Below, in pieces: positions 9,169 through 28,085 of a DNA stretch of 48,758 nucleotides. Within the stretch, counting starts at the first letter, position 1. Every line of letters begins with the position of its first letter. The notes beneath the pieces are model-generated. The model saw only the letters and a program-made list of their open reading frames with translations, had not been told where the DNA came from and searched no databases. The stretch covers positions 1 through 48,758 of the forward strand of contig CAZSLT010000001.1 in assembly GCA_964607595.1 (NCBI GenBank), read 5' to 3'. This DNA is from an uncultured Phycisphaeraceae bacterium. GTDB taxonomy: Bacteria; Planctomycetota; Phycisphaerae; Phycisphaerales; UBA1924. Both the position numbers and the translations under genes were made by a program.

Positions 9169-9190
9169 TGACGCACGGAGCGGCGGGCGA

Positions 9191-10708: not shown

Positions 10709-10712
10709 CGCC

Positions 10713-11576
10713 TCACTCGCCGGGGATGTACGAGATCACGCCCTCCCACGGGCTGGACGCGCTGGCGTACAGCCGTCTGGGAATCCGCCCGGCCAGGTAC
10801 GATTGCCTCCCGGCGATACAGGCGTGGCGCATCGCGTGGGCCATCATCACCGCGTCATTCGCGTGCGCGATGGCGGTGTTGAGCAGCACGGCGTCCGACC
10901 CAAGCTCCATCGCCACCGAGACATCCGAGGCGCTGCCCACGCCGGCGTCCAGAACGACTGGGTACGCCGGGTCGCCGTCTTTGAGGGCGTCGAGGCAGAG
11001 CACGATGTTGTTGCGGTTGAGCACGCCCTGGCCCGAGCCGATGGGGGAGCCGGCGGGCATGACGCTGGCGGCGCCCGCGTCCTTGAGCCGTCGAGCGATG
11101 ATCGGGTCGTCGCTGGAATAGCAGAGCACCTCGAATCCGTCGGCCACGAGCCGACCGCAGGCCTCGAGAGTGCCGACAGGGTCGGGCAGCAGCGTTTTCT
11201 TGTCGCCGAGTACCTCGAGCTTGACCCACGATGCGCCAGGGTTGCCGATCTGATCGAGGATCTCGCGCCCCAGCCGCGCGACGCGGACGGCGTCCTCGGC
11301 GGTGAAGCAGCCCGCGGTGTTGGGCAGGATGGTGTAGCGCGAGGTGTCGATGAACTCGAGCAGGGACTGGCCGCGATCATTCACGAGCCGTTCGCGCCGG
11401 ACCGCGACCGTGACGACCTCCGCACCCGAGGCGTCGAGCGCCCTTTGCATGGTCGGGTAGTCGGCGTACTTGCCGGTGCCGACGATGAGCCGGGAAGTGA
11501 ATGACCGTCCGGCGATGCGGAAGGGGGCGGTCCCGGATTCGGCGGCGGTCGTCGTGGTCGTGGGAGTCGTGGTCAT
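10713..11576 (-). CDS. thiG: Thiazole synthase ThiG
   Basis: ...LIVGTGKY..., WVKLEVLGD (Schiff-base Lys context), [20 protein letters not shown] 11576 was chosen (MTTTPTTTT...); the upstream part of ORF 10713..11798 overlaps thiS out of frame. Confidence 0.9.
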
Positions 11577-11601
11577 GGGGTGTTCGCGAGCGTGATAAGG
11601 G

Positions 11602-11802
11602 TCAGCCGCCGCCGACGAGCGTGACGATCTCGACCCGGTCGCCGTCGCGGAGGGTGTGCTCGTCGTGGCGTTTGCGGGGGACGATGGACTTGTTGACCTC
11701 GACGGCGCAGGGGACACCGGCGAGCTTGTGGAGTTCGAGCAGGCGCGCGACCGAGGCGCGGTCTTCGATGGTTTCGGGCTGCCCGTTGACGGTGACAATC
11801 AT
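11602..11802 (-). CDS. thiS: Sulfur-carrier protein ThiS
   Basis: 66 aa ending ...[10 protein letters not shown] (the C-terminal Gly-Gly of ThiS/MoaD-fold carriers). It sits 25 nt upstream of thiG. Confidence 0.85.
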
Positions 11803-11819
11803 GGCCCGATTGTAGGTCG

Positions 11820-13679
11820 TCAGGCGCGTCGGGGCATCATGCGGACCCGCGCGGCCGTCGCCGCCACGGCCAGGGTCGAGAGGGCCATCGCGACGGCGCA
11901 GGAGCCGACGACCAGGGCCATGAACGCCTGCGGGCTCATCTCGTGGTTCATAAAGCTGTACTCGTCCCGGCCGTTGAAGGCCGAACCAAACAGGGCGTCG
12001 TGCTCGAGTCCTCCCTGGAGCGACTCGAACGCCATGTAGGGCGGATTGATCAGGACGAGCGCCTTGAACGCGTAGTACTGGTCGGTCTCGATCTCAAAGA
12101 TACCGCCGAAGAAGATAAGGACGAACAACGGGGCGGCCAGCCACAGTCCCGCGGCCGACACCAGGTTCGCAACGCTCGCGGCGATCGGCTTGCGGAACAT
12201 CGAGCTCCAGAACAGCCCCATCGATGCCAGGAACACCGACCACGACCCCATGAGCATCAGCAGTTCAATCGTGGTGTACCAGCGCACCGATCCTAGCAGC
12301 GAGAAGATGACGAAGTGCGCGCCGAGCAATAGGGGGATCGGCGACAACCGGGCAAGCCCGGCCATGAGCTTGCCCATAACGATGCGCCACGCCGGGATAG
12401 GCGTCGCCAGCAGAACATCCCAGGTGCGCTTCTGCCGCTCCGAACTGATGCGCGATGTCGTGATGACAATCGCCATAAGCATCTGCGCCAAGCCGAGAAG
12501 AAAGAAGATGATGGTGTGCAGCGTGCTCCACTCCCGGTCCGCCCACGCCGTGTAGTACACCCAGCCGAGGAACCCGATCACGAGCACAATGAGCACGCCC
12601 GCGGCCCACTTGTTGCCGACCCAGCGCGTCCGCATCTCCAGCCAGAAGATCGGATCGTTGCTCACCATCCGGGAGGCGCGTGAGCGTTCCTCAACAGCCG
12701 CGCCGGGCGTCACATCTGGAGTGGATTGTCGGCGGGGCTTCTTGACCCGGCGATCGGGCCGGACCGACCCACGCATCTCGGCGCGCATCGACCGCCGGGT
12801 GAGCGACACACCCAGCAGGCAGATGAGCAGCCCGACGAGGACGGTCACGCCCGAGGCGCTGATCCACGCCAGACGCGGGTCCATCGGCAGCGGCGCGCCG
12901 GAGCCCGCCATGCTGTTGATGAACAGTGCGATCGCCGGGCTGATGTGCGCCAGGATTCCAATGGTCCGCAGCGAGATGGGGCCGGGGCCGGCCGCGAATC
13001 CCGTGAGCACGGCGAACAGCAGCATCAAGAGCATCGGGCCCACGAGGTACATCCCCGTGATGACCTCGGCCAGCACCATGACCGACCACGGGCGCTTGTT
13101 GACGATCGAGAGGAGCAGGCCGACGGACGCCGCGAAGAATGCGGTCGAGAGCGTGACCGCGGCACCCGCGATCACGGCCTCGGTCTCCAGGCCGCCGAGC
13201 AGCCGGAGCAGCAGGAGGGCGGGAATCGAGAGGAGCACGAGGATGAACACCTGCATCATCCGGCTGCTGAGCTTGCCGAAGACGATCTGCGCGGCGCTCA
13301 TGGGGGTGGTCATCAGGGCCGCGAGCGTGCGGTTCGACTGCTCCTCGCTGATGCACGCCGCGGTGAGGGCGGGGGCGATCAGTGTGACGACGATGAACTG
13401 CAACCAGACGATGAACCAGGCGAGTTGCGGCCCGGCGCCCTGCATCCCCTGAAGCCGCTCGGCGGGGCCCCGGTGCTCCAACCCCGACCAGTGACCCCAC
13501 AGAAAGAGCGTGACGACGACCGCGATCAGCAGCGCAAAGAGGCCGCGCATCCAGTAGGTGGAAGCGCGCCGGCCGGAGACGATGGTCTCCTTGGCGAAGA
13601 CCGGGCCGAAGAGCGCCCGGTCCGGGCGGACGGCGCGCCAGAATCGTCCGGCAAGGTGACTGGACGAGGCGTCGCTCAT
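11820..13679 (-). CDS. ABC-2-type transporter permease, duplicated (about 12 TM helices)
   Basis: 619 aa, almost entirely hydrophobic helices in two halves separated by a basic loop (RRVKKPRRQ). Its ATG overlaps the stop of the upstream ABC ATPase (ATGA). Confidence 0.7.
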   Translation of the reverse strand: MSDASSSHLAGRFWRAVRPDRALFGPVFAKETIVSGRRASTYWMRGLFALLIAVVVTLFLWGHWSGLEHRGPAERLQGMQGAGPQLAWFIVWLQFIVVTLIAPALTAACISEEQSNRTLAALMTTPMSAAQIVFGKLSSRMMQVFILVLLSIPALLLLRLLGGLETEAVIAGAAVTLSTAFFAASVGLLLSIVNKRPWSVMVLAEVITGMYLVGPMLLMLLFAVLTGFAAGPGPISLRTIGILAHISPAIALFINSMAGSGAPLPMDPRLAWISASGVTVLVGLLICLLGVSLTRRSMRAEMRGSVRPDRRVKKPRRQSTPDVTPGAAVEERSRASRMVSNDPIFWLEMRTRWVGNKWAAGVLIVLVIGFLGWVYYTAWADREWSTLHTIIFFLLGLAQMLMAIVITTSRISSERQKRTWDVLLATPIPAWRIVMGKLMAGLARLSPIPLLLGAHFVIFSLLGSVRWYTTIELLMLMGSWSVFLASMGLFWSSMFRKPIAASVANLVSAAGLWLAAPLFVLIFFGGIFEIETDQYYAFKALVLINPPYMAFESLQGGLEHDALFGSAFNGRDEYSFMNHEMSPQAFMALVVGSCAVAMALSTLAVAATAARVRMMPRRA

Positions 13680-14593
13680 TGCACCTTGCCCTGTGTGAGG
13701 CGGAGGAACACATCCTCGAGCTTGGTCGAGATGGGCCGGAAGGCGTCGATGCGCTGCCCAGCGTGGACGAGCCGCGCGATCAGATCGTGATGGCCATTCC
13801 CGCCGGGCAGGAGATCGACCAGCAGCTCGCCGTTCTCGCGCCGGACCTCCGCGACCCGCTCAATTCCACGCAGCACGCGTTCGGCGTGGTCGGAGTCGCC
13901 CTCGATCCGGATCGCGATGCGCTCGCCCACGCCCGCCTGGCGGAACGCCTCGTCGAGGGAGCCGGAGTACAGGAGCCGGCCGCGCTCGATGATGCCGATG
14001 CTGGTACACATCTCGTGGAGCTCCGAGAGAATGTGCGACGAGACGATGATCGTCTTGCCCATCGTGCGGAGTTCGACGAGCAACGAACGCATCTCGATCC
14101 GGGCCCGCGGGTCGAGCCCGGAGGCGGGCTCGTCGAGCAGCAGCACCTTGGGATCATGGATGAGGACGCGCGCCACGCCGAGTCGCTGTTGCATGCCCCG
14201 GGAGAGGCCGTCGACCATGGAGTCCCGCTTCTCGGTGAGGTCCGTGAGCTCCAGCACGCCGTCCACGAGCGCGCGGCGCTTGGAGCGGGGGACCTCGAAC
14301 GCCGCGGCGAAGAACTGGAGGTACTCATCGACGGTCAGGTCGTCGTAGACACCCAGGAAGTCGGGCATGTAGCCGACGACGCGCCGGATGTGCGAGGCGT
14401 GGGCGCGGACATCCCGCCCGTCCACGCTCGCCGAGCCCGAGTCGGCGCGGATGAGACACGCCAGGACCTTCATGGTGGTGGATTTGCCGGCGCCGTTGGG
14501 GCCGATGAAGCCGTAGACCTCGCCGGGCGGGAGGGAGAGCGTCAGGTTGTCCAGCGCTGTGAGCTTGCCGTAGCGGACGGTGACGCCCTTCAT
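13676..14593 (-). CDS. ABC transporter ATP-binding protein (ABC-2/DrrA-like exporter type)
   Basis: Walker A GPNGAGKST, signature LSRGMQQR, Walker B LLLDEPASGLD, H-loop SSHIL. Start ATG 14593 (MKGVTVRYGK). GTG 14602 would instead give a GTGA overlap with the upstream gene. Confidence 0.9.
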   Translation of the reverse strand: MKGVTVRYGKLTALDNLTLSLPPGEVYGFIGPNGAGKSTTMKVLACLIRADSGSASVDGRDVRAHASHIRRVVGYMPDFLGVYDDLTVDEYLQFFAAAFEVPRSKRRALVDGVLELTDLTEKRDSMVDGLSRGMQQRLGVARVLIHDPKVLLLDEPASGLDPRARIEMRSLLVELRTMGKTIIVSSHILSELHEMCTSIGIIERGRLLYSGSLDEAFRQAGVGERIAIRIEGDSDHAERVLRGIERVAEVRRENGELLVDLLPGGNGHHDLIARLVHAGQRIDAFRPISTKLEDVFLRLTQGKVQ

Positions 14594-14598
14594 CTCGA

Positions 14599-16689
14599 TC
14601 ACGGTCGATTCTCCTGCGTCACCACGGGGATCAGCATCCGTACAACCTCGGTGCGCGGACGCCGGTCGGACTCGGCTTCGCCGCCGAGCGTGACCGAGAC
14701 ATCCGACGGCTGGTCGACCAGCGTGGCGTACACCACCGCGAGCGAAGGCGAGCCGACGGCGCGCTCGATCGCGTGGGCGCGGCGAGAAGCGCCGGGCAGC
14801 CAGAGCGCGGGCGACATCAGATCGGCGCCATGATCCGCCTCGACGTGCGGCCAATACTCGGCGCCAGAGAGGCCCAGCCCGTACCGGTCGGCGAGCGAGT
14901 GATCGGAGTGGTCGAGCGTCCACACACCGCCCGCGTCGTGCGTCGCGGCGTAAGAGCGGGCGTCATGCGAGACGAGCACGCCCCGCGCCTCGGCGGGGAT
15001 CCCCTCGAGTTCAAGTCGCTCCGGCCTGCCCCGTTCGTTCAGGACAAGCCGCCCTGAGGTCGAGGGGACGACCCGCGACTCATCCATCAGGAAGTTGAGC
15101 GTCCACACACCCATCGGCAGCATGGTGGGCGTGGACCCGCGACGCTGGTCGGTGTAGAGCGTGATCGAACTGACGGGCCTCGAGTCCCACAGGTTGCGCG
15201 AGGTCGACGCCCGCGACCACCACGCGCGGGGGTCGGCCCCCTCGACGGATCGCGCCCCGGTGCGACCGGCGAAGAAGGAGACCAGCCCGGAACGCGAGGC
15301 ATGCCCATCCAGAGTGTTGATGTCCGTGGCCACAAGCCGGTGCTGCTCGCTGTCGGAAGCGCGGAGCAGGCGCGGGGCGATGTAACCCGCCCCCGCGACG
15401 ACGCCGATCCACACCAGCGCCGACAGCCACGCGTACCGAGTCAGCCGCAGCCGGCGCAGGACGAGCCGGTCCACCGGGCCGACAAGCAGCGCCAGCGTGA
15501 TCAGCACGCCGCCGAACGGGAGAATCGGAAAATCGGATCGCAGACCCATCCCCGCGGCCGCAATGTTCAGAACGCTGTCGGTCGCTCGTCTCCGCTCGCT
15601 CGCCATCGAGTTCCACGGATCGACTCTTACGGGCCATTCACTGCTCATCGAAACGCTCAGCACTTCCCGCCACAGGGCCCCGGGTTCGCCCCACGGGTAG
15701 ATGTCAATGGGGTCATCGACGATGAGTGTGACCCACCCCCCGCCGAGAATGCCCTCAGCGATCGCGCCGACACCCCGAGCGCCCGGCTCGTCGGTGCGCA
15801 TCCCGGCGCCGGCCGGCGGCTCCAGATCCCGGATCGTCCAGCCGCGAAACTCACCCTCCGTGGTCAACCCAAACTTCACGCGGCCCTCGGTCGGACCGGG
15901 GATCAATTCCACGGTCATCTCTCCGAGCAGCCAGCCGAGGTCGGCGCGTGCCGCGTCCACGAGGAGGACAATCGATCCGCCCGCCGCGACCCATTCGGCG
16001 AGCGCCGATCGCTGCGCACCGTCGAGCCGGAGTGCCGCGTCAGGGGTGAGCACGACGGTCTCCCACGCGTCGTAGGCCATCCAGACCGTCGGCAGACTCT
16101 CGGGCAGGTCGTATCCCACCGACACCATGCTCCATCGCTCATCCGCGCCGGGGCCGAATGCCCACGAGTCGTGCGCGCGCCGCAGCGACATCGTTCCCAC
16201 GGCCAGAACGGTCTTCGAGTTCGCTCCAAGCGGGGTCGCGTTGAAGGGGACGGTGTTGCCGCGGCCGTCGGCGGTGAACTCGGCGGCGCGGAAGCGCCTG
16301 CCGCGGTTGTCGAGGAGCTCGATCGAGACTCGCCGGCGGTCATCGCCGTAGTTCTGCACCGCGTTCAAGGGGACGGCCAGGTCGACAAAGGTCGTCTTGC
16401 CGGGCGTCGCGCCGAAGGGCGCGGTCGCGACCAATTCGGTGCTGGCGCCGCTTTCGACGGCGACGCGGATCATTCCATCAAACGGAACAGCGCCGCCGGA
16501 GACCTCGATGCGGACGGCGTTCCACCGCTCGGGCATCATCAAACGGCCAAGCCCGAAGATCGCCGTGAAGTTGGGGCGCGGGTCGTCGGGCGCGGGTGGG
16601 CTCTGGCCCGCGGTGATCCGCACGCACAGCAGCACCAGGATCGCGGCCAGAGTCTTCGTGAGGACCGAAGCACAACGTGCGCCGATCAC
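14599..16689 (-). CDS. Hypothetical secreted/membrane protein of the MoxR-VWA cluster (696 aa)
   Basis: GTG 16689 overlaps the stop of the upstream VWA gene (GTGA) and opens a signal-peptide-like LTKTLAAILVLLCVRITAG. There are internal TM helices (FPILPFGGVLITLALLVGP, YAWLSALVWIGVVAGAGYI). I recognised no catalytic motif. Confidence 0.6.
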   Translation of the reverse strand: MIGARCASVLTKTLAAILVLLCVRITAGQSPPAPDDPRPNFTAIFGLGRLMMPERWNAVRIEVSGGAVPFDGMIRVAVESGASTELVATAPFGATPGKTTFVDLAVPLNAVQNYGDDRRRVSIELLDNRGRRFRAAEFTADGRGNTVPFNATPLGANSKTVLAVGTMSLRRAHDSWAFGPGADERWSMVSVGYDLPESLPTVWMAYDAWETVVLTPDAALRLDGAQRSALAEWVAAGGSIVLLVDAARADLGWLLGEMTVELIPGPTEGRVKFGLTTEGEFRGWTIRDLEPPAGAGMRTDEPGARGVGAIAEGILGGGWVTLIVDDPIDIYPWGEPGALWREVLSVSMSSEWPVRVDPWNSMASERRRATDSVLNIAAAGMGLRSDFPILPFGGVLITLALLVGPVDRLVLRRLRLTRYAWLSALVWIGVVAGAGYIAPRLLRASDSEQHRLVATDINTLDGHASRSGLVSFFAGRTGARSVEGADPRAWWSRASTSRNLWDSRPVSSITLYTDQRRGSTPTMLPMGVWTLNFLMDESRVVPSTSGRLVLNERGRPERLELEGIPAEARGVLVSHDARSYAATHDAGGVWTLDHSDHSLADRYGLGLSGAEYWPHVEADHGADLMSPALWLPGASRRAHAIERAVGSPSLAVVYATLVDQPSDVSVTLGGEAESDRRPRTEVVRMLIPVVTQENRP

Positions 16690-18809
16690 AGATGGACCTT
16701 TCGGTTGTAGACGAACCACTCGAGCATCAGCACACCGATCGCGCCCAGTAGAATCCACGGCCAGAGCCGACGCTGGCGCTTCTCCGGGGTGTTGTTGGCA
16801 TTCGAGGCCGTCACCTTTCCGGTCGGCAGGGTCAATTGTGTCTCGGTGGCGATCCGGGACTCCTCCGCGTCGGCGAGATTTACCGCGATCGTCCGCGTGG
16901 GCCGGCCGTTGATCACGGGGTCCTGCGGGCCGGGCTGGCCCGCCCATGACAGGGTGTACAGCCCGACGGTCTCGATCGGACCAAAGCTGACGCGCCCGTC
17001 GGCCCCGGCGCGGAGCGTCACCTCGGCCCCGTCGGGGGAACGAAGACGCGCCTCGCCGACGCCGTCGGGCAAACGCTCGGTGAGAATCTGGCCGGGTTGG
17101 AGCGCCGCGGCCCCCGTCGACCCGCCCTCGTCGCCGAGGAAACGGATCGCCTGCCCCAGGAACACGATGAACCCGGCGTCCAGCGGCCAGGTCGAACGGG
17201 TGACATCAAAGGTGACGACGAGCGCGTGCGCCGATCCGCGGGATGCATCGACGATCGCCGGCCCCGCGCCGGAAGTCGCCAGCACGGTGACATCGCGCGT
17301 CGCCTCGACGACCGGCGCGTTTCCGATGACCAGCGACGACAGCGAGACAAACCGCAGGGCCGGGTGATCGCGGTCCCAGTCGACGATGCCGGTCGTCTTG
17401 AGCGTCTGCGACGACGGTGTCAGCCCCGTGATGTCGGGTGTCTTGCCGATAATGAGGTAATTGCCCGGCGGGAGTTGTCCCGTGCCGCGTTCCGCCGACT
17501 CCGCGGCGTCCCCGTCCGCCGGCGCGTCCGCGGAAGCGGAGGGGGTGGGGGGAGTAGGGGGGGCGGGGATCAGGTCGGGGAGCCAGTTGTCCAGCACATA
17601 GACATCGTGGTCGGACAGTTGCCCGGCATCGCGGAGGCGCAGAAAGTCGGCGCTGGTGATCGTCGTGACCTCCGAAACCCCGATCGCGCCGATCGCGGAC
17701 TTCAGGAAGTAGTTCCCCGAGGTGACCAGCGCCACCGAGAGCCGCTTGGCCGGCGGGATGATCAGCCGCGCCGTGTTGTCGGACACCAGCGCGTCGTTCG
17801 ATGGGATGCGCACCGTGATGATCGCGGCCTCGGTGCGGTCCAGCGCGAAGACCACGCCCCCACGCCCCGGCTCCGCCTCCGTGGCCGCGGGAAGCGTCGC
17901 GGACTTGACCATGCCGATCGCGCCGTCGATGCCGAACTCGACATCCACCGTCCGCCGATCGGTGTCGGTGCTCTGGAGCCCGACAAACACACTGATGCGC
18001 TCGGGGCGGTCGTAGGAGCGTTCGGCCCCAAGCGCGGTGATGGCGACATTGGCCAGCGCATCGGCGGCCCCGCCGACCGTCGTATAGCGGAACTCGGACT
18101 CGGGGTGCTTCTCGACCGCGTCGAGGTGCCCGATCGCGCCGTCGGAAAAGAGGGCTACCGGCGCGCCCGGCAGGTACTGCGCATCATCGCGCCCGGTGCC
18201 GGTCTCGATCTTGATCGTCGACGGCTTGATGAACGGCCCGGCGACGCGCATGACATCGGTGAAGTCGGTGGGTTCGTCGGTCGGTTCGATCGAGCGGATC
18301 GCCTCCTCCAGCCGGGCCTTGCTCGCGGTGTAGGGCTGGACGATCTCGGCGTTCTGCGCGAAGGCGACGACCATCGCCTGATCGCCCCCCTTGGGATTGA
18401 GCACGCCGCCGTCGCGCATGGCCGCGACGACCTTGATCGCCTCGTCCTTGGCCTTCTCCAGCCGGGTGACGGTCCGGCCGTCGATGGTCTCATCGGTCGC
18501 GGACATGCTCGCCGAGCGGTCGATGATGATGACGGTGCGGTTGGCGGGCGGCGAGGCGCCGGTCATCTGCGGCTGGGCGATCGCGACGAGCGCCGCGCCC
18601 AGCGCCAGCAGTTGCAACAGCAGGAGGATGTTCCGGCGGAGCTTCTGGAACGGGGCGTTGGCCTGGATGTCCTGGATGGTCTTCTTCCACAGCAGCGTCG
18701 TGGAGACTTCCATGTCGCGCCGGCGCAGTTTGAGGAAGTACAGGATCAGCAGCGACGGCACCGCGATCGCCGCGGCGATGCCCGCGAGCCCGGGGGTGAG
18801 CCAGTTCAT
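16686..18809 (-). CDS. BatA-type N-terminal double-TM + von Willebrand factor A domain protein
   Basis: The N-terminus MNWLTPGLAGIAAAIAVPSLLILYFLKLRRRDMEVSTTLLW matches the aerotolerance-regulator (BatA) N-terminal domain. MIDAS motif IIIDRSASMS. C-terminal TM helix. Its ATG overlaps the DUF58 stop. Confidence 0.8.
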   Translation of the reverse strand: MNWLTPGLAGIAAAIAVPSLLILYFLKLRRRDMEVSTTLLWKKTIQDIQANAPFQKLRRNILLLLQLLALGAALVAIAQPQMTGASPPANRTVIIIDRSASMSATDETIDGRTVTRLEKAKDEAIKVVAAMRDGGVLNPKGGDQAMVVAFAQNAEIVQPYTASKARLEEAIRSIEPTDEPTDFTDVMRVAGPFIKPSTIKIETGTGRDDAQYLPGAPVALFSDGAIGHLDAVEKHPESEFRYTTVGGAADALANVAITALGAERSYDRPERISVFVGLQSTDTDRRTVDVEFGIDGAIGMVKSATLPAATEAEPGRGGVVFALDRTEAAIITVRIPSNDALVSDNTARLIIPPAKRLSVALVTSGNYFLKSAIGAIGVSEVTTITSADFLRLRDAGQLSDHDVYVLDNWLPDLIPAPPTPPTPSASADAPADGDAAESAERGTGQLPPGNYLIIGKTPDITGLTPSSQTLKTTGIVDWDRDHPALRFVSLSSLVIGNAPVVEATRDVTVLATSGAGPAIVDASRGSAHALVVTFDVTRSTWPLDAGFIVFLGQAIRFLGDEGGSTGAAALQPGQILTERLPDGVGEARLRSPDGAEVTLRAGADGRVSFGPIETVGLYTLSWAGQPGPQDPVINGRPTRTIAVNLADAEESRIATETQLTLPTGKVTASNANNTPEKRQRRLWPWILLGAIGVLMLEWFVYNRKVHL

Positions 18810-19744
18810 CGCAGCACCCCCCGTCGGCGCAGATAGTCGAGCAGCAGCGTCTCGATCGGCGTGTCGGATTGCATCGTCAGCAAAACCATCTCGCGCCGCG
18901 CGCAGAAATCGCGCAGCCCGTCGCAGTACGCCGTCAGGTTCGCCTTGTACCGCTTGAGCAACGGCGCGCTGATCGTCACCTCGGTGATGTCGGCGTCCTC
19001 GACATCGCGCAGCCGCAGATCGCCGCCCAGCGGCGGATCGACCTCCTGCGGGCTGAGCACCTGGATCAGCACGATGTCGTACCCGCGGCCCACGAGGTAC
19101 CGCAGCCCCTGCTCGTACCCCTCCTTGAAGAAGAAATCGGAGATCACCACCATCACGCCCTTGCCCTGACGCGCCAGCGCGATCCGCTTGGCCGCGGCAT
19201 CGAACCGCATCTTGCCCACCGGGTCGAGCGAGGTCAGGAACCGCCCCACCTCGCTGACGCGCCGGCGACCCCGCAGATTGCGGATCGTCGGGATCGCCGC
19301 GGGGTCGGCCGCCTCGGAGTCGTCGCCCGCCAGCGCCGTGACCGCGACGCGGTTCATGTTGACCAGCCCGATATAGGACAGCGCGGCCGCGGCCTTCTGC
19401 GCGAACAGGAACTTCTCCGGTTCCCCCGTGCCCATCGACTCGCTGGCGTCCAGCACGATGTGCAGCGACAGGTCCTCCTCCTCCATGAAGAGCTTGAGAA
19501 AGAGCCGGTCGAGCCGCCCGAAGATGTTCCAGTCGATCCGGCGGAGGTCATCGCCGACGACATACTGGCGGTGGTCGGCGAACTCGACCGACTGGCCGCG
19601 CCGCTTGGATCGGCGCTCGCCCTTGACCTTGCCCTGGAACACCTTCTTGGAGGTGATGTCGAGCTGGTTGAGCTTGGCGACGAGCGGGCCGTCGAGCAGT
19701 TCGTCCAGCGAGCGGGGCCGGGTTGGGGAGGAGGTGCGTAGCAT
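18806..19744 (-). CDS. DUF58 family protein (MoxR-associated)
   Basis: RRGQSVEFADHRQYVVGDDLRRIDWN signature of DUF58, followed by a degenerate VWA-like IVLDASESM. Confidence 0.85.
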   Translation of the reverse strand: MLRTSSPTRPRSLDELLDGPLVAKLNQLDITSKKVFQGKVKGERRSKRRGQSVEFADHRQYVVGDDLRRIDWNIFGRLDRLFLKLFMEEEDLSLHIVLDASESMGTGEPEKFLFAQKAAAALSYIGLVNMNRVAVTALAGDDSEAADPAAIPTIRNLRGRRRVSEVGRFLTSLDPVGKMRFDAAAKRIALARQGKGVMVVISDFFFKEGYEQGLRYLVGRGYDIVLIQVLSPQEVDPPLGGDLRLRDVEDADITEVTISAPLLKRYKANLTAYCDGLRDFCARREMVLLTMQSDTPIETLLLDYLRRRGVLR

Positions 19745-20301
19745 TCACTTCACGCGAACCAGATAGATATCGTCATCGCCACTATTTTTGATCGCATCAT
19801 CAACAAACGCCGCAACAACCTCCGCGCGTCGTTGAGGAGGCACGGGTTCTTCAGCGGGAAAACCAAAGTGATCCGCGAAGTAGTCCAATCGCCATGCTGG
19901 TGAGAAATACATCAATGCGAAAGCCAACCTGAGTCGATCGTCGGACACCTCAGCGACCCCGTATGCGAGTGTGTGAACAGGGTCCTCATCTTCCTGCGAG
20001 GGAAAATCAAACTCGATGTAAGTCCTCTCAGACCAATCAAACGCGACCGCTCTTGAAGTCCTGACAGCGTCATCGAAGGTCATCGACACCTCGTACTTCC
20101 CATGTCCCAAACGGCGAAATGTCATGGGAAGGTCCCGGGTGCCGTAGCTCGGATGCTGCGGATCGGGCTCCCATACTCCTGCCAGGCCCGGGATATCGAC
20201 TGCTACGACATCGGGGATGCCGCCCGGCGTCGTGATGGTCTTGGCGCATCCCGCCATTGCGATTGCTAACACGACAAATAAGAAAGTGGTGATGGCTTTA
20301 C

Positions 20302-20305
<4 letters not shown>
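19745..20305 (-). CDS. Small lipoprotein, unknown family (186 aa), compositionally atypical
   Basis: MSKAITTFLFVVLAIAMAGC is a signal peptide with a lipobox-like AMAGC. Its ATG overlaps the moxR stop (ATGA), and its stop directly abuts the DUF58 ATG. My hand count gives about 55% G+C. Confidence 0.7.
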
Positions 20306-21342
<1,037 letters not shown>

Positions 21343-21373
21343 TTCAACAACTCCATTCGCCGCTCGGGGCGAC

Positions 21374-24300
21374 TCAGTTCTTCTTGTCCTCGTCCTTCAT
21401 CTGGTCCTGCGCCCGCTTCTTGGCCGCCAGCAGGCGGGACATCCCGCCCTCTTCATCGCCTTTGCCCTTTTCGCCGGGCCGCTGCATTTCCGCGTCCTTT
21501 TGACGCCTATCGACGATCGGCGCCGGAGCGTCCGTGACATTCCGCGCGGGCTTCTTGAGATACTCCGCGCCCGCCTCGAACTTCCGGGCCGTGTCCACCG
21601 ACCAGGCGCCGGGATCGTCTTTGACACGCACCTCGCCCGACGCGGCACGCTCGGCGAGCTTCTGCTTCGTGGACTGCCGGGCCGCGCGCAGCGCATCGAC
21701 CTGCGTCGCGCCGGACTGCTTCTTGCGGAACAGCCCCCGAGCCCACGCCAGGATCGCCGGGATGTCGATCCGCACGCGCCGGACCGCCACATCCACGAGG
21801 AACAGCCCCAGCGACGCCAGCGCCACCGCCAGCCAGATCGACCGCAGCGAGACGGGCATCTTGAGCCCCTCGCGCGAGAACAGGTCGGCATCCTCCGGCT
21901 CGAATGGCAGGACGCGCCCGCCCGTCAGGTCCGCGACCTGCTGCAGCAGCGCCCGGTTGTCTTCCAGAGCGCGGTACTCATCGGGGTACGGCCTCAGCAC
22001 CGCCGCCTGCACCGACCCGCGGTCGGGCTCCGCCTCGGCGCCGCCGACGCCCGGCGCGTCGTAGTGCAGCGTGACGATGTGCGTGCCGGGCTTGCCCGAG
22101 TCGAAGTCGCCCTCGTAGCGGCCGGGCGCCGTCTGCGTCAGCTCGATCGCCTGCGCTTCAAGGTTGGGGTCCACGGCCGTGCCGCGGAACATCGCGAAGT
22201 TCATCGGGTCGCCGGCGCTGTCGAGCGCGGTGACGATCACATGCGTCGTGTCTCCCCGGGTCTCGGTGGCGACGCTGAGGTTCGCGGCCCCGGCGGGCCG
22301 CATCGCCCATCGGATGTGCTGCTCCCAGAACTGCTTGTACTGACCCCACCCCGTCCACGCCGGGCTCCATCGTGCCGCCGCGTCGGAAGTGAACGCCACG
22401 GCGCGCCCCAGCCCGTGCTGCCACTGCGCGACGAGCGGGTCATCGGTCGCCGTGCGGGCCGTCGTGAGCGCCAGCCCCTCACGGTCGGCAGTGACGACAT
22501 ACCCCCGCATCGCCGGGAGCGTCGCGCCGATCCCCTGCATCGGCTCGGCGGCGCCGTTGGTCACCTTGGGATTGAAGGGCTCGCCCTCCCAGATGAGCGA
22601 CCGCTTCACGGTCTGGGCTTCCTTGATGAAGATCTCGGGAAGCGCGGCCAGCCCGTTGCCGCTCTGGCTGTAGATGAGGTAGTCGCGCCCGCCGGTCGCG
22701 TTGGCCAGGGCCTTCATCTTGGCGACATCATTCGCGCCGCCGTGCGGATCCACGCAGATCGTCGTCACGGTGATCTTCGACGCGACATACTTCTGGACCA
22801 GCGCCGTCGCGGGGGCGCTGGCGTCGCCGTCGGTGATCAGGATGAGGTGCTTCTGCCCGGCCTTGGCGCCCTGAAGCCCGGTGAGGGCCATCTGCATCGG
22901 CGCGTCGTAGTCGGGCATGTCCCCGAACTGCATGTTGTTGATCGCCGCGTTGGCCGCGCCCCCGTCGCCCTTCTCCTGCATCGGGTACACCCAGCGGATC
23001 CCGTTGCCGCCCGCGGACCACGAATACTCAAGAACACCGACTTCGTCTCGGCTGGACAACGCGCCGACCGCGGCCCTGGCCGTCTGCTTGCCCAGGAAGA
23101 CGCCGTTGGGGATCTCGATCGAGTGCATGATGAGCGCCAGCGCGCCTTTGGGGATATTCCGCTTCTCCGGCGGCTCCAGCAGCAGCGGCAGCACCTCCGC
23201 CACCGGCGAGCCGATCCAGCCGCCGGCGCCGAACGAGTCCGGCCCGCCGATCATCACCAGCCCGCCGCCGGCGTCGCGCACATACGCCGCCAGCTCCTTC
23301 TGCTGCGCGAAATCGAACGAGTACGCCGGGGCGTCCATGAGCACGACGGCGTCGTACTCCTGGAGCTCGGTGAGCGAACGCGGCGCCTCGACCGTCCGCC
23401 GAAGGTCCACCGCGATGCGCGCCGAGTCCAGCGCCTCGGACAGCGGCTGCGCCGCCGCCGGATCGTCCGACAGCAGCAGCACACGCCCCTCGGCGGCGAC
23501 AAAGGTCACGCCGGCCGCGGCGTTGTTCTCGGCGATCGTGTCCGTCGACGCGTCGAGCGGCGTGAAAAACGCCCGGAACTCCTGCGCGCCGGCCCGCGTC
23601 ACCGTCACCGGCACCAGCAGCGTGTTCGGCCCCTTCTCCAGCTTGTACACCTGCCCGTAGGTCGTGGGATCGTCCGGCGAGAGGTCCACCGGCCGGTCGC
23701 CCATCACCAGCGACACCTCACCGACCGTCTCCTCCTTGGCCGTGATCGACATACGGACATTGATCGTCTGGCCCTTGCGCGCTGTCGCCGGCGCGTAGAG
23801 CCCGTCGAAGATCACCTCGTTGTCGTACTTGTAATCCACGAGCAGCACATCGATCGGCACACCCGCCGCGGCCGCGGCCCGCGCCGCCGACAGCAGACTC
23901 CCCTGCGTCTCGTTCCCGTCGCTCACCAGCGTCACGCGCCCGGCCGCGTCGTCGGGAATCATCGTCATCGCCAGCCGCACGCCCGCGGCCAGGTCGGTCG
24001 CCGACTCCAGCCCGATCATCGCGCTGCCGCCCTCGAGCTTGGCGCGGACATCCGCCGGGCTCGCCGGCACCGGCTCCGGGAGCGACTGCGTCAGCGCATC
24101 GGCGGCGGTCGTCACCGCCCCGAGCCGATCCGATGTCCTGGCCCCCTCCATCGCCTCGGCCACATAGCCGTGCAGCCAGTCATGCACGCCCAACGGGATC
24201 GAACGGCTCTTGTCGATCACCATGATCGAAGCGACATCCTTCGACACCAGCCGCCACTGCGGTTCGGCCAGTGCGCCGATGAGCGCCGCCAGCACGATCA

Positions 24301-24442
24301 GCCGGACGGCCAGCGCCACCCGGCGCGTCACCGTTCCCATGCCTGTCAGGGACTTGCGCCCCCACCAGACCGTCAGCGCGAAGGTCACCGGGATGAGCAG
24401 GAGCCAGATCGGCGCATCGAACTGAACAGGCCCGATGATCAT
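21374..24442 (-). CDS. Large membrane-anchored protein with two VWA domains and a double-TM N-terminus (1022 aa)
   Basis: N-terminal double TM (PIWLLLIPVTFALTVWW; VALAVRLIVLAALIGAL). First VWA MIDAS IMVIDKSRSI. Second VWA-like HLILITDGDAS. C-terminal TM helix plus a Lys/Asp/Glu-rich tail. Its ATG overlaps the stop of the permease-NHL gene. Confidence 0.75.
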   Translation of the reverse strand: MIIGPVQFDAPIWLLLIPVTFALTVWWGRKSLTGMGTVTRRVALAVRLIVLAALIGALAEPQWRLVSKDVASIMVIDKSRSIPLGVHDWLHGYVAEAMEGARTSDRLGAVTTAADALTQSLPEPVPASPADVRAKLEGGSAMIGLESATDLAAGVRLAMTMIPDDAAGRVTLVSDGNETQGSLLSAARAAAAAGVPIDVLLVDYKYDNEVIFDGLYAPATARKGQTINVRMSITAKEETVGEVSLVMGDRPVDLSPDDPTTYGQVYKLEKGPNTLLVPVTVTRAGAQEFRAFFTPLDASTDTIAENNAAAGVTFVAAEGRVLLLSDDPAAAQPLSEALDSARIAVDLRRTVEAPRSLTELQEYDAVVLMDAPAYSFDFAQQKELAAYVRDAGGGLVMIGGPDSFGAGGWIGSPVAEVLPLLLEPPEKRNIPKGALALIMHSIEIPNGVFLGKQTARAAVGALSSRDEVGVLEYSWSAGGNGIRWVYPMQEKGDGGAANAAINNMQFGDMPDYDAPMQMALTGLQGAKAGQKHLILITDGDASAPATALVQKYVASKITVTTICVDPHGGANDVAKMKALANATGGRDYLIYSQSGNGLAALPEIFIKEAQTVKRSLIWEGEPFNPKVTNGAAEPMQGIGATLPAMRGYVVTADREGLALTTARTATDDPLVAQWQHGLGRAVAFTSDAAARWSPAWTGWGQYKQFWEQHIRWAMRPAGAANLSVATETRGDTTHVIVTALDSAGDPMNFAMFRGTAVDPNLEAQAIELTQTAPGRYEGDFDSGKPGTHIVTLHYDAPGVGGAEAEPDRGSVQAAVLRPYPDEYRALEDNRALLQQVADLTGGRVLPFEPEDADLFSREGLKMPVSLRSIWLAVALASLGLFLVDVAVRRVRIDIPAILAWARGLFRKKQSGATQVDALRAARQSTKQKLAERAASGEVRVKDDPGAWSVDTARKFEAGAEYLKKPARNVTDAPAPIVDRRQKDAEMQRPGEKGKGDEEGGMSRLLAAKKRAQDQMKDEDKKN

Positions 24443-27027
24443 CGCGACGCCACCCCCGGCGCGGCACGCTCCGGGCGGAACCGCATCACCCGGTTGTTGC
24501 CCGAGTCGAGGACGAAAACATCACGCCCCGCCGTCGCGACGCCCCACGGCGCCACCAGCTGGCCCTCGCCCCGCCCCGGCGTGCCGTACAGGCCCAGCCC
24601 GCGACCGGTCTCGGGGTCGATGATCTGGACGCGGCATCCGCCGAACTCCGCGACCGCGAGCGTGCCGTCCCGACGCATCGACAGGCCGTAGGGATACCGG
24701 AACTCGCCCGCGCCCTCCCCCGGCGCGCCGCCCTCGGCGCCGATCCACGCGATCAACTCACCGTCGAGCGTGAACCGGCCGAGCCGATGATCGATCGAGT
24801 CCGCGACGATGAGCTCGCGCCGCGCGGGGTCGTACACGATGGATTGCGGCCGGTTGAGGACGATCTGGCCGTCTGCCGCCCGGTCGCGCGGTGCGCCGAA
24901 GGAGAAGAGGTACGAACCTTCGGCGTCGAACGCGCTCACGCGGTCGTTGCCGCCGTACTCGCTGATGTAGAAGCGTTCGGGCGTGACACCATCGGACGCG
25001 GGAACGATCGCGACATCCGTCGGATAAATAAACTGCCCCGGGCCCTCTCCCAGTTCGCCGAAGGTGCGCACGAGCTCGCCGGTGTCGCCGGTCGGGCGAT
25101 AGACCGCCACGCGGTGCATGTGCGTATCGGCGATGTAGATCAGCCCGTCGGGCCCGATGGTCAGCCCGACGGGGAATCCCTTCTCGATGCTCGGGAGTTT
25201 CCACCGCGCGATGGTCACGCCGTCGAGCGTGCTCCCGGTGACCCACCCGGATTTGTCGGCGATCCAGAGGTGCTCGCCGTCGCTGTCGATGGCGCGCGGG
25301 TAGATCAGCGTCGGCTCGTCCCCGATCTCGCCGATGTTCGGCCCGCTCACGCCGCCGAACACAGCGATGGGCCGGATGGGCTCGGCCAGCGACGGGTCGC
25401 GCCCGCACGCCGCGAGCAGCAGGGCGGTGATCGCGGGCATCGTGGCCGGTGCCATGCGACGCAGCGCCTCGAATGTCCGTGATGAGCAAGCCCCGGCGAT
25501 CACGCCCAGCAGGATACCTGAGCCGAGCATGATCAGCCCCGCGGCGGAGAGCTCATCATCCCGCAGATAATGCAGTTTGCCCAGCAGCGACTCGGCGAGA
25601 TTGCCCGGCCCCGGCGGGGCGACGATGACCGTCGCCTCGATCTCATGAAGACTCAGCGCAAAGAGCCCGATCGGAGCCGCCGCCAGCAACCCCGCCTGCA
25701 GCCGCCCCGCCGACCTCCACCACGCCGACAGGCCGACCGTCGAGACCATCCGGCGCGCATCGGCGAGTTCCCGCGGCTCAACGGCGTGGGCGACCAACCC
25801 CAAGATCGCGGCCACGCCACCGAATCGCGACAGATGCGCCGCGACGGTCAACGCGCGTCCCTCGGCCAGCGCCGGGTGGATCTCCCTCGCCGCCGCCGCC
25901 AGCGCACCTCCCAAGAGCACGCCGGGAAGGAAGAGCATGGCGATCCACAGGTGCGCGCTCATCGCGGTCAGGAGGCGCACCAGTCGCGTCCGCGCCCCGA
26001 GGCCGACCGCGGTGCCCATCGCGATGACCATGGCGCCGACGGCGACAATCGCGGCGGTCACGACGCTGTGAACGAGCGGCTCTCCCATCACCGCCGGCAG
26101 CGTCCCAACGGCGAGCCAGGTCCCCCGTTGCATCGCGAACGCCCCGGCCGGAACGATCACCGCCGCCGCCCAGACCACCCACGCCAAGACCACGCCTCCC
26201 CGGAGCCGCGAGTCATCACGATCGACGCCGGGGGAGGCCAGATCGCGGCAAGTGCGCGCCAGTCGCCCCGACATCCAGACGCCCATCAGCAACGCCACCA
26301 GCACCATCGGCGCCGCCGACGCCCACACCGGCGCGGACCACCCCGACTCGACCAGCCGCCGCCAGATGACGACCGTGAAGGTCTCGACGCGAGCGAGATG
26401 CAGCGGGATGGCGCTGCCGAGCATGATGGTTGATACGACGCCGACACTCGTCAGGATCGCCGGCCTGAGCATCGCAAGAACGGCACACCATCGCCGAAAC
26501 GCCCCGGCACGGGTTTGCCGCATCGCATCGAGCGACTCGCGGTCGAGGCGCCGTGCCGAAGCCCCGATGATGACCACGCCGATTGGAAACGACCAAAGCG
26601 CAAGCCCGCCAACGGCTTGCGCATGCCCGACCCATTGCCACGCCCACGCCGGGCTGCCCTCCAGCAGCGCGCCCAGGCGCGTCCCCGGCTCGCGCCACAG
26701 ACCCCACGCCGCGTAGACAAGATATTGCGGCACGAGCAGCGGGGCCGCCATCAGAATGAGCCAACGGGTGCCGAGCCGACGAGACGCCCACGCCCCCGGC
26801 AGCGCCAGGATCGTCGCCAAGACACCGATGGAAAGCGCGACGAGGAGTGTCCGTGCCAGCACTCCCGCGGCGTCGAGGGCCTGAGCGCCCGTGAAGCCAA
26901 CGGCCCCGCCGCGTGTCGACACCACTACCCCGAGAGTCAGACTCAGGGCGAGCACCGCCGCCCCTGCGATGGAAGGGATCGAGATCGCCGCGACCGGGAT
27001 GAAGGTGACGCGGTGATCGTTGTTCAT
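24439..27027 (-). CDS. Two-domain ABC importer permease (FbpB/ThiP-like) fused in frame to a six-bladed NHL-repeat beta-propeller
   Basis: aa 1-520: about 12 TM helices with two EAA-like loops (LDRESLDAMRQTRAGAFRRW..., PRELADARRMVSTVGLSAWW...). aa 525-541: MAPATMPAITALLLAAC, which looks like a lipoprotein signal. aa 550-862: six NHL-like blades (for example FRYPYGLSMRRDGTLAVAEFGGCRVQI, LVAPWGVATAGRDVFVLDSGNNRVMRF). Confidence 0.75.
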   Translation of the reverse strand: MNNDHRVTFIPVAAISIPSIAGAAVLALSLTLGVVVSTRGGAVGFTGAQALDAAGVLARTLLVALSIGVLATILALPGAWASRRLGTRWLILMAAPLLVPQYLVYAAWGLWREPGTRLGALLEGSPAWAWQWVGHAQAVGGLALWSFPIGVVIIGASARRLDRESLDAMRQTRAGAFRRWCAVLAMLRPAILTSVGVVSTIMLGSAIPLHLARVETFTVVIWRRLVESGWSAPVWASAAPMVLVALLMGVWMSGRLARTCRDLASPGVDRDDSRLRGGVVLAWVVWAAAVIVPAGAFAMQRGTWLAVGTLPAVMGEPLVHSVVTAAIVAVGAMVIAMGTAVGLGARTRLVRLLTAMSAHLWIAMLFLPGVLLGGALAAAAREIHPALAEGRALTVAAHLSRFGGVAAILGLVAHAVEPRELADARRMVSTVGLSAWWRSAGRLQAGLLAAAPIGLFALSLHEIEATVIVAPPGPGNLAESLLGKLHYLRDDELSAAGLIMLGSGILLGVIAGACSSRTFEALRRMAPATMPAITALLLAACGRDPSLAEPIRPIAVFGGVSGPNIGEIGDEPTLIYPRAIDSDGEHLWIADKSGWVTGSTLDGVTIARWKLPSIEKGFPVGLTIGPDGLIYIADTHMHRVAVYRPTGDTGELVRTFGELGEGPGQFIYPTDVAIVPASDGVTPERFYISEYGGNDRVSAFDAEGSYLFSFGAPRDRAADGQIVLNRPQSIVYDPARRELIVADSIDHRLGRFTLDGELIAWIGAEGGAPGEGAGEFRYPYGLSMRRDGTLAVAEFGGCRVQIIDPETGRGLGLYGTPGRGEGQLVAPWGVATAGRDVFVLDSGNNRVMRFRPERAAPGVASR

Positions 27028-28058
27028 TCGCCGATCGACTCGCGGCAGAGTTTCATCGCCTCGTCCATCGACGCGACAACCTCGGCGAAGTCGATGTCGA
27101 TCGGGTCCGGCGGCTCATAGGACGCGAAGGGCTCACGAAGCGCCGGTCGCAGCGGGAAGTTGTGCGAGTCGCTCTCGGCCAGCGCACGCTCGACGCGTTC
27201 GGAAAGCAGGTACTCGATCAGCGTCGCGGCAGCGCCCGGGTTCGGGCCGGCGTGGACCCGCGCCACGGTCGTCGGGATGGTCAGCACGCCGAGCGATGCA
27301 CCGCCCGGCGTGTCATGACGGATATAGACAAGGTCGATCGGCCAGTCGTGGCGCTGCCCGGCCCAGACATCGTCGGTGTCGGTGAGCCCGATGTCCGCCT
27401 CGCCCGTCGCGACAGCGCGGACCACGGCGGAATTGCCGTCGAGAAGGCGCACGCCGTTCGCCTTGATCCCCGCGAGCCATCGCTCCGCTTCCTCGGCCCC
27501 CCAGAGCGCGACGAGCGCCGCCATGTGGCCGCGTGTCGTGCCGAACGATGGACGGGCCATGACGACCCGCCCCTTCCACCGCGGATCGATCAGGTCGTGC
27601 ATTGTCGTTGGCGCGCTGGCTGGCTCGACCCGATTGGAGTTGTAGACAAGGACACGGGCGCGGACCGCCATCGGGTACCACACCGAGCCGGCCGGGCGTG
27701 GCCAGTCGCGCAGCGAATCGATCGACGCATCGTCGAGCACGCCCTCCTGCGCCAGCAACTCGGTCATGAAGGGCTCGCCCGACCAGTACACATCAGCGAT
27801 GGGGTTGTCCCGCTCAAGGCGGAGCCGCTGGACCAGCCCGGTGGTTTTCGTCGCCTCGGTGTCGGTGCGGGTCTCGACCCGGACGCCGGTCTCCCGCTCG
27901 AACTCTTCGATGATCGGTCGGGCGTAGACATCATCAACGGTGTAGTACAGAACCACCGTCGGTGCGTCGGCGTCGCCCCGGCGGCACGAACTCAGGCAGG
28001 CACAGGCCGACCACAATGAAAGAACGATCAGGACCCGCGTGGCGAGCGTGTTCATCAT
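27024..28058 (-). CDS. Periplasmic substrate-binding lipoprotein, Fe(3+)/thiamine (FbpA/ThiB-like) family
   Basis: Signal plus lipobox MMNTLATRVLIVLSLWSACAC. VVLYYTVDDVYARPIIEEFERETGVRVE...NPIADVYWSGEP is typical of family-1 iron(III)-type binding proteins. Its stop overlaps the permease start (ATGA). Confidence 0.75.
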   Translation of the reverse strand: MMNTLATRVLIVLSLWSACACLSSCRRGDADAPTVVLYYTVDDVYARPIIEEFERETGVRVETRTDTEATKTTGLVQRLRLERDNPIADVYWSGEPFMTELLAQEGVLDDASIDSLRDWPRPAGSVWYPMAVRARVLVYNSNRVEPASAPTTMHDLIDPRWKGRVVMARPSFGTTRGHMAALVALWGAEEAERWLAGIKANGVRLLDGNSAVVRAVATGEADIGLTDTDDVWAGQRHDWPIDLVYIRHDTPGGASLGVLTIPTTVARVHAGPNPGAAATLIEYLLSERVERALAESDSHNFPLRPALREPFASYEPPDPIDIDFAEVVASMDEAMKLCRESIGE

Positions 28059-28085
28059 CTTCTGGGCGGCTCGGTATCGGGGTGT

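Follow-up and report, generated by a model that had tools for sequence, protein, structure and literature searches.

A 561-nucleotide (nt) gene that lies between moxR and a DUF58 gene in DNA of an uncultured Phycisphaeraceae bacterium appears, with a probability that we put at about 0.6, to be an ancient polymorphic gene, exchanged by recombination and probably balanced, that encodes an envelope accessory of the MoxR-DUF58-BatA system. The stretch that we analysed, hereafter the window, comprises 48,758 nt (assembly GCA_964607595.1, contig CAZSLT010000001.1), and the gene, hereafter the cassette, occupies positions 19745-20305 on its minus strand. In what follows, W designates the window sequence and its allele, L-numbers designate related loci or contigs, and X-numbers designate public sequencing runs.

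Divergent alleles between conserved flanks

Using the 90%-identity clusters of the window DUF58 and MoxR proteins, we obtained the contigs L171, L172 and L173, and found their alleles by reading the contig DNA. We then set the identity of the lipoprotein encoded by the cassette, in amino acids (aa), beside the nucleotide identity of the flanks:

W, L171 and L172, each pair: flanks 95-97% identical, lipoprotein 25-27% identical
L173 and L165: flanks 95-97% identical, lipoprotein 31% identical
W and L165 or L001: flanks 84-88% identical, lipoprotein 76% identical
L172 and L173: flanks 85-87% identical, lipoprotein 46-50% identical

Allele classes cross species lines, since the class of the window allele (class A) is common to backgrounds that are only 84-88% identical. 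Regarding substitution rates, W and L171 differ in DUF58 by 0.106 substitutions per synonymous site (dS) and 0.003 per nonsynonymous site (dN), while the lipoprotein gene shows a dN of 1.04 and saturated synonymous sites. Across W, L171 and L172, the dS of DUF58 ranges from 0.11 to 0.17 and its dN from 0.003 to 0.006, with lipoprotein dN values of 0.93 to 1.04. With a dN of about 1 in the lipoprotein beside a dS of 0.11 in DUF58, evolution in place, even if neutral, is insufficient, and hence the alleles predate their backgrounds.

The divergent segment has abrupt limits: identity computed in 30-nt windows is 90-100% on either side and falls to 20-60% precisely from the start codon to the stop codon of the cassette. 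An intragenic mosaic was also found between L172 and L082, whose nucleotide identity is around 93% for roughly the first 85 nt (from the signal peptide through a TTPGG motif) before they diverge, with the breakpoint just after the TTPGG codons. A member of the family occupies the slot between moxR and DUF58 in all relatives whose flanks are at least 84% identical, and also in a distant lineage of lower G+C content with flanks only 60-65% identical in DNA. In the window, L165 and L170, read in every frame, we found neither a second family member nor a repeat of the cassette.

A first-pass annotation of this DNA, made from its letters, had described the gene as recently acquired and inserted or, as an alternative, as a differently evolving accessory subunit. 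The alternative was correct, and the phylogeny of the cassette, read from the allele and flank identities, does conflict with that of its neighbours. The proposal of a recent arrival is not supported, because the slot is filled in every close relative sampled and in the distant lineage, the alleles greatly predate the strains, and the base changes described below show no excess towards amelioration.

The same break is visible in public sequencing runs from soil, hot-spring or biofilm, wastewater and sludge metagenomes, belonging to at least five studies. In runs X3, X5, X6, X7, X9, X10, X12, X13 and X16, the Logan contigs from close relatives cease to align with the window at 19740-19745 and at 20301-20320. 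In X3, 574 window letters are replaced by 555 unlike letters, and in X6, 557 letters are replaced by 529 others. The organism in X3 is collinear with the window from 9000 to 28999 at 94-97% identity, and the cassette is the only break. Words of the W allele occur in 3 of the approximately 22 runs that hold the flanks, which makes it a minority allele. Across both junctions, a contig from X1 matches the window over 1210 nt, with 6 mismatches. Finally, X14 holds a 288-nt contig (window 19866-20153) identical to the W allele, and the only flank contigs of this run are 94-97% identical to the window; this may reflect a recent transfer of the W allele into a diverged background, or a mixture of strains at 3x coverage.

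The cassette family and its base composition

The features of the cassette, all on the minus strand, are the following:

19745-20305, minus: cassette gene, hypervariable, window allele of class A; 561 nt, 186 aa plus stop codon
20246-20305, minus: putative signal peptide and lipobox (MSKAITTFLFVVLAIAMAG followed by C20), from the translation, by pattern inspection
20219-20233, minus: codons of the motif T25-T26-P27-G28-G29, just past the putatively lipidated Cys, from the family alignment
20302-20305, minus: ATGA, in which the stop codon of moxR and the start codon of the cassette overlap; marks the upstream limit of the variable segment
19742-19747, minus: cassette TGA (19745-19747) abutting the DUF58 ATG (19742-19744); downstream border of the variable segment

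The seamless coupling that had been described at both ends is therefore present, with the ATGA shared with moxR and the TGA next to the DUF58 ATG. All alleles have the ATGA start overlap; in the other alleles the stop junction is TAATG or TAGTG, with a one-base overlap with DUF58. As the first-pass annotation had proposed, the protein carries a lipobox by pattern inspection, A-M-A-G before C20, following a hydrophobic N-terminus. Inspection with the pattern [LVIM][ASTVG][GAS]C was the sole basis of our signal peptide and lipobox calls, and a Cys-containing lipobox was seen in all seven alleles of the high-GC clade (MAGC, LAGC, LVGC, MGGC, LVAC, TGGC and LFGC). Just downstream, TTPG is invariant in the six representatives of the allele classes despite an overall identity of 21-30%; the fifth residue of the motif is G, but N in L173. 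Other residues conserved across the family are G43, W45, R65, Y71, S74, E98, Y115, L125, F134, W138 and R160.

The earlier statement that the protein belongs to no recognised family was upheld, as we obtained no match in Pfam, NCBIfam, PHROG, PADLOC or the PDB sequences. Pfam DUF7533 gave a sub-threshold match confined to the signal peptide, and was discarded. The protein searches spanned 5.8e9 and 1.8e9 sequences: a word-indexed search returned one homologue, an exhaustive HMMER search three, and a profile search one more. Only four other protein clusters were found, with P0002/P0006 at 76% identity, P0003 at 30%, and P0004 and P0005/P0007 at 25-27%, and the nearest named relative comes from a metagenome-assembled genome (MAG) of the Phycisphaerales. 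Each homologue is encoded directly after moxR and, wherever the contig is long enough, directly before DUF58. The open reading frame (ORF) is intact in W, L001, L165-169, L082, L171 and L172, and the dN/dS ratio is 0.16-0.22 within class A and 0.15 between L172 and L173, indicating purifying selection. The cassette is a genuine protein-coding gene, and its family has not been described before.

Gene callers dealt poorly with this family. In L171 the cassette (514-1056) was not called at all, and it was cut short at an internal Met in L172 (1715-2248; 156 of 177 aa) and in L173 (268-811). By re-reading the DNA, we recovered intact members with lipobox and TTPGG in L171 (180 aa) and L172 (177 aa). 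In L173, the cassette (268-811) is frameshifted between the signal peptide and the mature part, and DUF58 (811-1748) is split into pieces of 162 and 115 aa; these disruptions are either an error of low-coverage assembly or the mark of a decaying operon. Atypical codon usage leads gene callers to miss or truncate the cassette, so the family is under-represented in protein databases and seems rarer and more 'foreign' than it is.

We also modelled the protein with AlphaFold2. On two sequences the mean confidence (predicted local distance difference test, pLDDT) was 46, which is unusable, while an alignment of five diverse sequences gave a pLDDT of 78.6 and a predicted template modelling score of 0.74. 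This model has eight or nine strands in a beta-meander plus C-terminal helices, and its TTPGG stretch has a pLDDT of 86-93. A Foldseek search of the model against the PDB and BFVD gave no significant match (best E-value of 0.028 in the PDB, with TM-scores of 0.26-0.38, and of 0.12 among viral structures). The top matches were calycin-like, and given that they were weak and non-significant, we did not assign the protein to the calycins.

In terms of composition, the cassette is the outlier that the first-pass annotation had estimated at about 55% G+C. We computed a G+C fraction of 0.545, compared to 0.677 for the window, and this is the lowest value among all 561-nt windows (mean of 0.677, standard deviation of 0.027); windowed G+C, G+C at third codon positions (GC3) and a codon index all confirm the deviation, and both AT-rich strings that had been quoted are present in the gene. 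GC3 is 0.59 in the cassette, against 0.92 in DUF58, 0.93 in moxR and 0.81-0.93 in 19 other genes of the window. When all other genes were cut into chunks of 187 codons, GC3 never fell below 0.68, and the cassette has a z-score of -6.0. Its index of codon adaptation (similar to the codon adaptation index, CAI) is 0.405, the lowest in the window, with a minimum of 0.498 elsewhere. The first codon position is also affected, with G+C (GC1) of 0.56-0.61 compared to 0.65-0.68 in the flanks. Milder dips in 500-nt G+C (0.60-0.62) occur at 12001-12500, 28501-29000 and 40501-41000, none of them as deep as the cassette.

This composition is shared by the relatives. Alleles of the high-GC clade (including L001, L082, L165, L171 and L172) have GC3 values of 0.56-0.63 against 0.84-0.94 in their neighbours, while in the lower-GC lineage (L170) the cassette is at 0.61 and the neighbours at 0.65-0.73. 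Since the anomaly is found in every related contig, it is not an assembly accident of the window. To see in which direction the composition is moving, we polarised the third-position differences between L001 and L165 by parsimony, with W as outgroup. In the lipoprotein gene we counted 10 AT>GC and 9 GC>AT changes, a set of only 19 polarised with a distant outgroup; amelioration towards a GC3 of 0.9 predicts a ratio of about 6:1 (binomial P = 6e-4). In moxR (20302-21342), the comparison with L001 and L165 showed 14 GC>AT and 1 AT>GC among recent changes at third positions, which is consistent with AT-biased mutation that is later purged in a gene at GC3 0.93. Mutually saturated alleles that are exchanged via high-GC flanks imply a long residence in high-GC genomes, without amelioration. 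The GC3 of around 0.6 shared by saturated alleles, together with the balanced changes, suggests that the low G+C is a property of the locus and not the fading signature of a donor. Hence, the low GC3 of the cassette looks like a locus-specific compositional equilibrium.

Explanations weighed

If the cassette is an old, exchanged polymorphism, as we favour, its product would be exported by Sec and, in the high-GC clade, anchored by lipid, with a beta-rich domain of some 160 residues. It would be co-translated with MoxR and DUF58, which would presumably make it a stoichiometric partner or a client of the envelope VWA machinery. The gene would behave as a single-gene replacement cassette, with a minimum of four or five allele classes of great age in the Phycisphaerales clade (21-50% protein identity between classes), each under purifying selection. 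Homologous recombination would carry classes from one background to another, and would be resolved in the highly conserved flanks (moxR and DUF58) or, now and then, in the stretch that codes for TTPGG. The conserved residues would supply the fold and a docking surface, leaving the remainder free to differ, and the variable part may be recognised by an antagonist that itself changes (for instance phages, bacteriocins or other cells), so that rare alleles would be favoured by negative frequency-dependent selection; we infer such an agent from the diversity of the cassette. As for the low GC3, mutation would be AT-biased in this lineage, and GC-favouring fixation would have little effect on alleles whose divergence keeps them from recombining with one another, the more so if each class has a small effective population. 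The GC-favouring force, as we infer it, could be recombination-associated biased gene conversion or codon selection; a link between GC content and recombination in bacteria has been reported (PMC4450053). More tentatively, and we would consider this possible without leaning towards it, the MoxR-DUF58-BatA system may include a subunit for specificity or recognition that is exchangeable and has long been under balancing selection, and the cassette may serve as a within-operon control showing that a GC3 of about 0.9 is kept by a recombination-dependent fixation bias.

Several observations weigh against this account or loosen parts of it. Long-term balancing selection and repeated horizontal exchange fit the data alike and cannot be separated with them. 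A partnership with MoxR, DUF58 or BatA is most likely, and it is operon position that suggests it; similarly, export and lipidation are predicted from a sequence pattern. In the lower-GC lineage (L083, L084 and L170), the signal peptide is kept and the lipobox Cys is absent, so that not all members of the family are lipid-anchored. Searches with PADLOC and PHROG gave nothing on a selective agent, and no public RNA run with the cassette gene was found. The alleles come mostly from short, low-coverage contigs, and the coverage of X14 is too low for linking its allele contig to its background contigs. The polarised spectrum is small, as stated, and two-sequence third-position counts, taken alone, are also fitted by amelioration from a GC3 of around 0.41 (hand calculation).

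One could argue, in line with the first-pass annotation, that a gene from a donor of lower G+C recently entered the moxR-DUF58 slot and is yet to be ameliorated. The strong deviation in G+C, GC3 and codon usage would be expected from such an event, as would the rarity of the family in protein databases and its absence from all 160 moxR loci whose MoxR is at most 69% identical, and the family is compositionally near home in L170. However, a family found at this very position in every close relative and also in a distant lineage is hard to reconcile with it, and so are mutually saturated alleles that all have a GC3 of 0.56-0.63 with GC3-0.9 flanks reaching up to their start and stop codons. The spectrum of AT>GC and GC>AT changes is balanced, within its small sample. 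Exchange through homologous flanks would need donors with near-identical high-GC flanks, the ATGA and TGAATG junctions leave no room for sequence of a mobile element and none was seen, and the database rarity is in part an artefact of the gene calls missed in L171 and truncated in L172 and L173. We therefore regard a recent acquisition as rather unlikely. Somewhat less unlikely, although still improbable, is that low GC3 has been selected for expression control, with rare codons or weak mRNA structure pacing translation for stoichiometry or export, and that hypervariability is an unrelated effect of weak constraint. All alleles have a low GC3 regardless of their sequence, the gene is translationally coupled on both sides and its codon index is the minimum of the window, as this idea predicts. 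Nevertheless, unrelated small membrane proteins in the same slot (Isosphaeraceae and Gemmataceae) have a normal GC3 of 0.79-0.89, and the low GC1 extends the shift beyond synonymous sites. Besides, the discordance between alleles and flanks is left unexplained, and recombination or old alleles would be needed anyway.

Divergence of this extent in one gene, with its scaffold residues conserved, could in principle have arisen in situ by positive selection or targeted hypermutation (for instance by a diversity-generating retroelement), without exchange of old alleles. We consider this very improbable in view of the flank dS of 0.11 between W and L171 against a lipoprotein dN of 1.04 with saturated synonymous sites and indels, of allele classes common to several species, and of a within-class dN/dS of 0.15-0.22; in the window there is no template repeat and no silent copy from which a retroelement or a silent cassette could work. 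Finally, the window and most relatives are metagenome assemblies, and L173 is frameshifted, so a chimeric or mis-assembled low-GC segment, or a segment that is not a gene, might be suspected. With the same architecture in more than 10 independent assemblies (NCBI, ENA and Logan), the X1 contig across both junctions and a conserved ORF under purifying selection, this is the least probable explanation, to the point of being negligible.

The operon, its slot in other lineages and known systems

Judging by its domains and gene order, the window locus is a planctomycete operon of the Bat-like MoxR-DUF58-VWA type. The genes around the cassette are:

20302-21342, minus: moxR, AAA+ ATPase of the AAA_3 family, 346 aa (Pfam AAA_3, 1.4e-64, plus AAA_lid_2); conserved upstream flank
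18806-19744, minus: DUF58 protein, VWA-like, 312 aa (Pfam DUF58, 4.2e-30); conserved downstream flank
16686-18809, minus: membrane protein with BatA N-terminal and VWA domains, 707 aa, next gene of the operon (Pfam BatA, 1.7e-11, plus VWA_2)
21374-24442, minus: 1022-aa protein with VWA and GATase1-like domains (Pfam), upstream in the gene string

The order moxR-cassette-DUF58-BatA/VWA is also found in L165 and L170, and a counterpart of the 1022-aa protein also lies upstream of moxR in L165. Within moxR, word depth rises at least 100-fold at 20758-21205 in all metagenomes; this segment is the conserved AAA+ core, and we rejected the rise as a copy-number signal because contigs of many unrelated MoxR genes match there. 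In L165 (Phycisphaerales MAG GCA_041401925.1; 2666-3748), moxR was called only as a 202-aa C-terminal piece, with around 470 uncalled bases before it, and this may be due to a frameshift, a pseudogene or an assembly problem. Beyond the BatA-like gene (16686-18809), a mechanical ORF of 782 aa (14599-16947, minus strand) overlaps it by 262 nt and has no Pfam match. Its equivalent in L165 has 709 aa and a 4-nt overlap at its start, so the true start of the window protein is probably further downstream. In L170, of the lower-GC lineage, a 117-aa ORF just after DUF58 (1917-2270) stands out in composition as well, with a G+C of 0.435 and a GC3 of 0.45 where its neighbours have 0.70-0.73, making it the second such outlier of the operon; it has no Pfam match on record.

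The first-pass annotation had assumed that moxR and DUF58 are normally adjacent, and in 119 moxR-DUF58 loci we indeed found a median gap of 9 nt (75th percentile of 77 nt), with inserts of at least 250 nt in around 13%. In the window the two genes are 557 nt apart, a distance taken up by the cassette, and are thus not directly adjacent. The cassette family was absent from all 160 moxR loci at 69% MoxR identity or less in our scans of genome and metagenome contigs. MAGs of the Isosphaeraceae carry, in the same slot, an unrelated conserved membrane protein of 123-139 aa with the motif HDIYDPPP and two or three hydrophobic helices, and other small membrane proteins were also seen there:

L004:1384-1803, L005:7042-7413 and L006:7025-7441: Isosphaeraceae slot protein
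L012:1707-2132: small membrane protein of 141 aa, Gemmataceae MAG
L007:5201-5416: small membrane protein of 71 aa

All of these slot proteins, that of L007 included, are of normal GC3. The slot tolerates accessory envelope proteins, and low-GC hypervariable behaviour is found in the cassette family only. A minority of loci have moxR-DUF58 inserts of 0.9-2.9 kb, among them L102, L103, L105, L112, L114 and L156 (1.35-1.6 kb) and L133 (2.9 kb); the insert of L030 (6963-7940) is an ORF of 325 aa.

MoxR-DUF58-VWA operons occur widely among bacteria, with a function that is still unclear, and a swapped lipoprotein suggests that part of this machine faces a co-evolving partner. Were the cassette protein a recognition subunit, the MoxR-DUF58-BatA system would be a point of contact with phages, bacteriocins or other cells. 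As a single-gene case of old alleles in young backgrounds, from an uncultured environmental lineage, the locus is unusually clean, and it offers a natural experiment on the maintenance of high GC3, given that neighbouring genes of one transcript differ by 0.3. The misses of the gene callers also mean that cassettes of this kind are under-represented in protein databases.

Regarding previous descriptions, a literature search on MoxR, DUF58 and lipoproteins gave no account of a hypervariable lipoprotein between moxR and DUF58, and a search for trans-species polymorphism in bacterial lipoproteins returned nothing relevant (vertebrate work only). The Bat or MoxR-DUF58-VWA ('aerotolerance') operons of Bacteroides, Leptospira, Borrelia and Rhizobium (PMC5700661) resemble the window locus in having a MoxR AAA+ protein followed by DUF58 and BatA-type VWA proteins; in those described, however, DUF58 directly follows moxR, and here the cassette lies in between. 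Their function is envelope-related and poorly understood (PMC5700661; Snider and Houry 2006, cited there). The top Foldseek matches were to calycin-like beta-barrel lipoproteins (lipocalin/Blc, YedD and avidin-like proteins). These are small, lipid-anchored, all-beta meanders with a terminal helix, as is predicted for the cassette protein, but the structural match is non-significant and they have no sequence similarity to it.

Islands for O-antigen or glycosylation have an atypical base composition, as the cassette does. The replacement flexible genomic islands of aquatic prokaryotes are exchanged by homologous recombination and have been linked to phage recognition (Lopez-Perez, Martin-Cuadrado and Rodriguez-Valera 2014, PMC4033161). 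They share with the cassette a constant position in all strains, differing content, conserved flanks, sharp borders and a proposed exchange by homologous recombination. Their products are exposed envelope structures, for which phage-driven selection for diversity has been proposed, and the cassette protein may likewise be exposed. They differ in being multi-gene glycosylation clusters, compared to a single 0.55-kb gene in a translationally coupled operon, whose versions are still homologous (with one fold and a conserved motif) and whose borders are the start and stop codons.

Polymorphic surface lipoproteins under balancing selection include fHbp and TbpB of Neisseria. In Borrelia, ospC has been described as a transferable polymorphic lipoprotein determinant (PMC2945197). 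Loci of the ospC type resemble the cassette in that a lipoprotein gene with many discrete old alleles, intragenic mosaics and lateral transfer lies in a conserved neighbourhood. Nevertheless, they encode pathogen antigens driven by host immunity, with types 70-90% identical, whereas the cassette belongs to an environmental planctomycete, has classes at 21-50% identity, lies in a MoxR-DUF58-BatA operon and bears no sequence or fold relationship to OspC. From replacement islands and ospC alike, the cassette is set apart by its stable GC3 deficit of 0.3.

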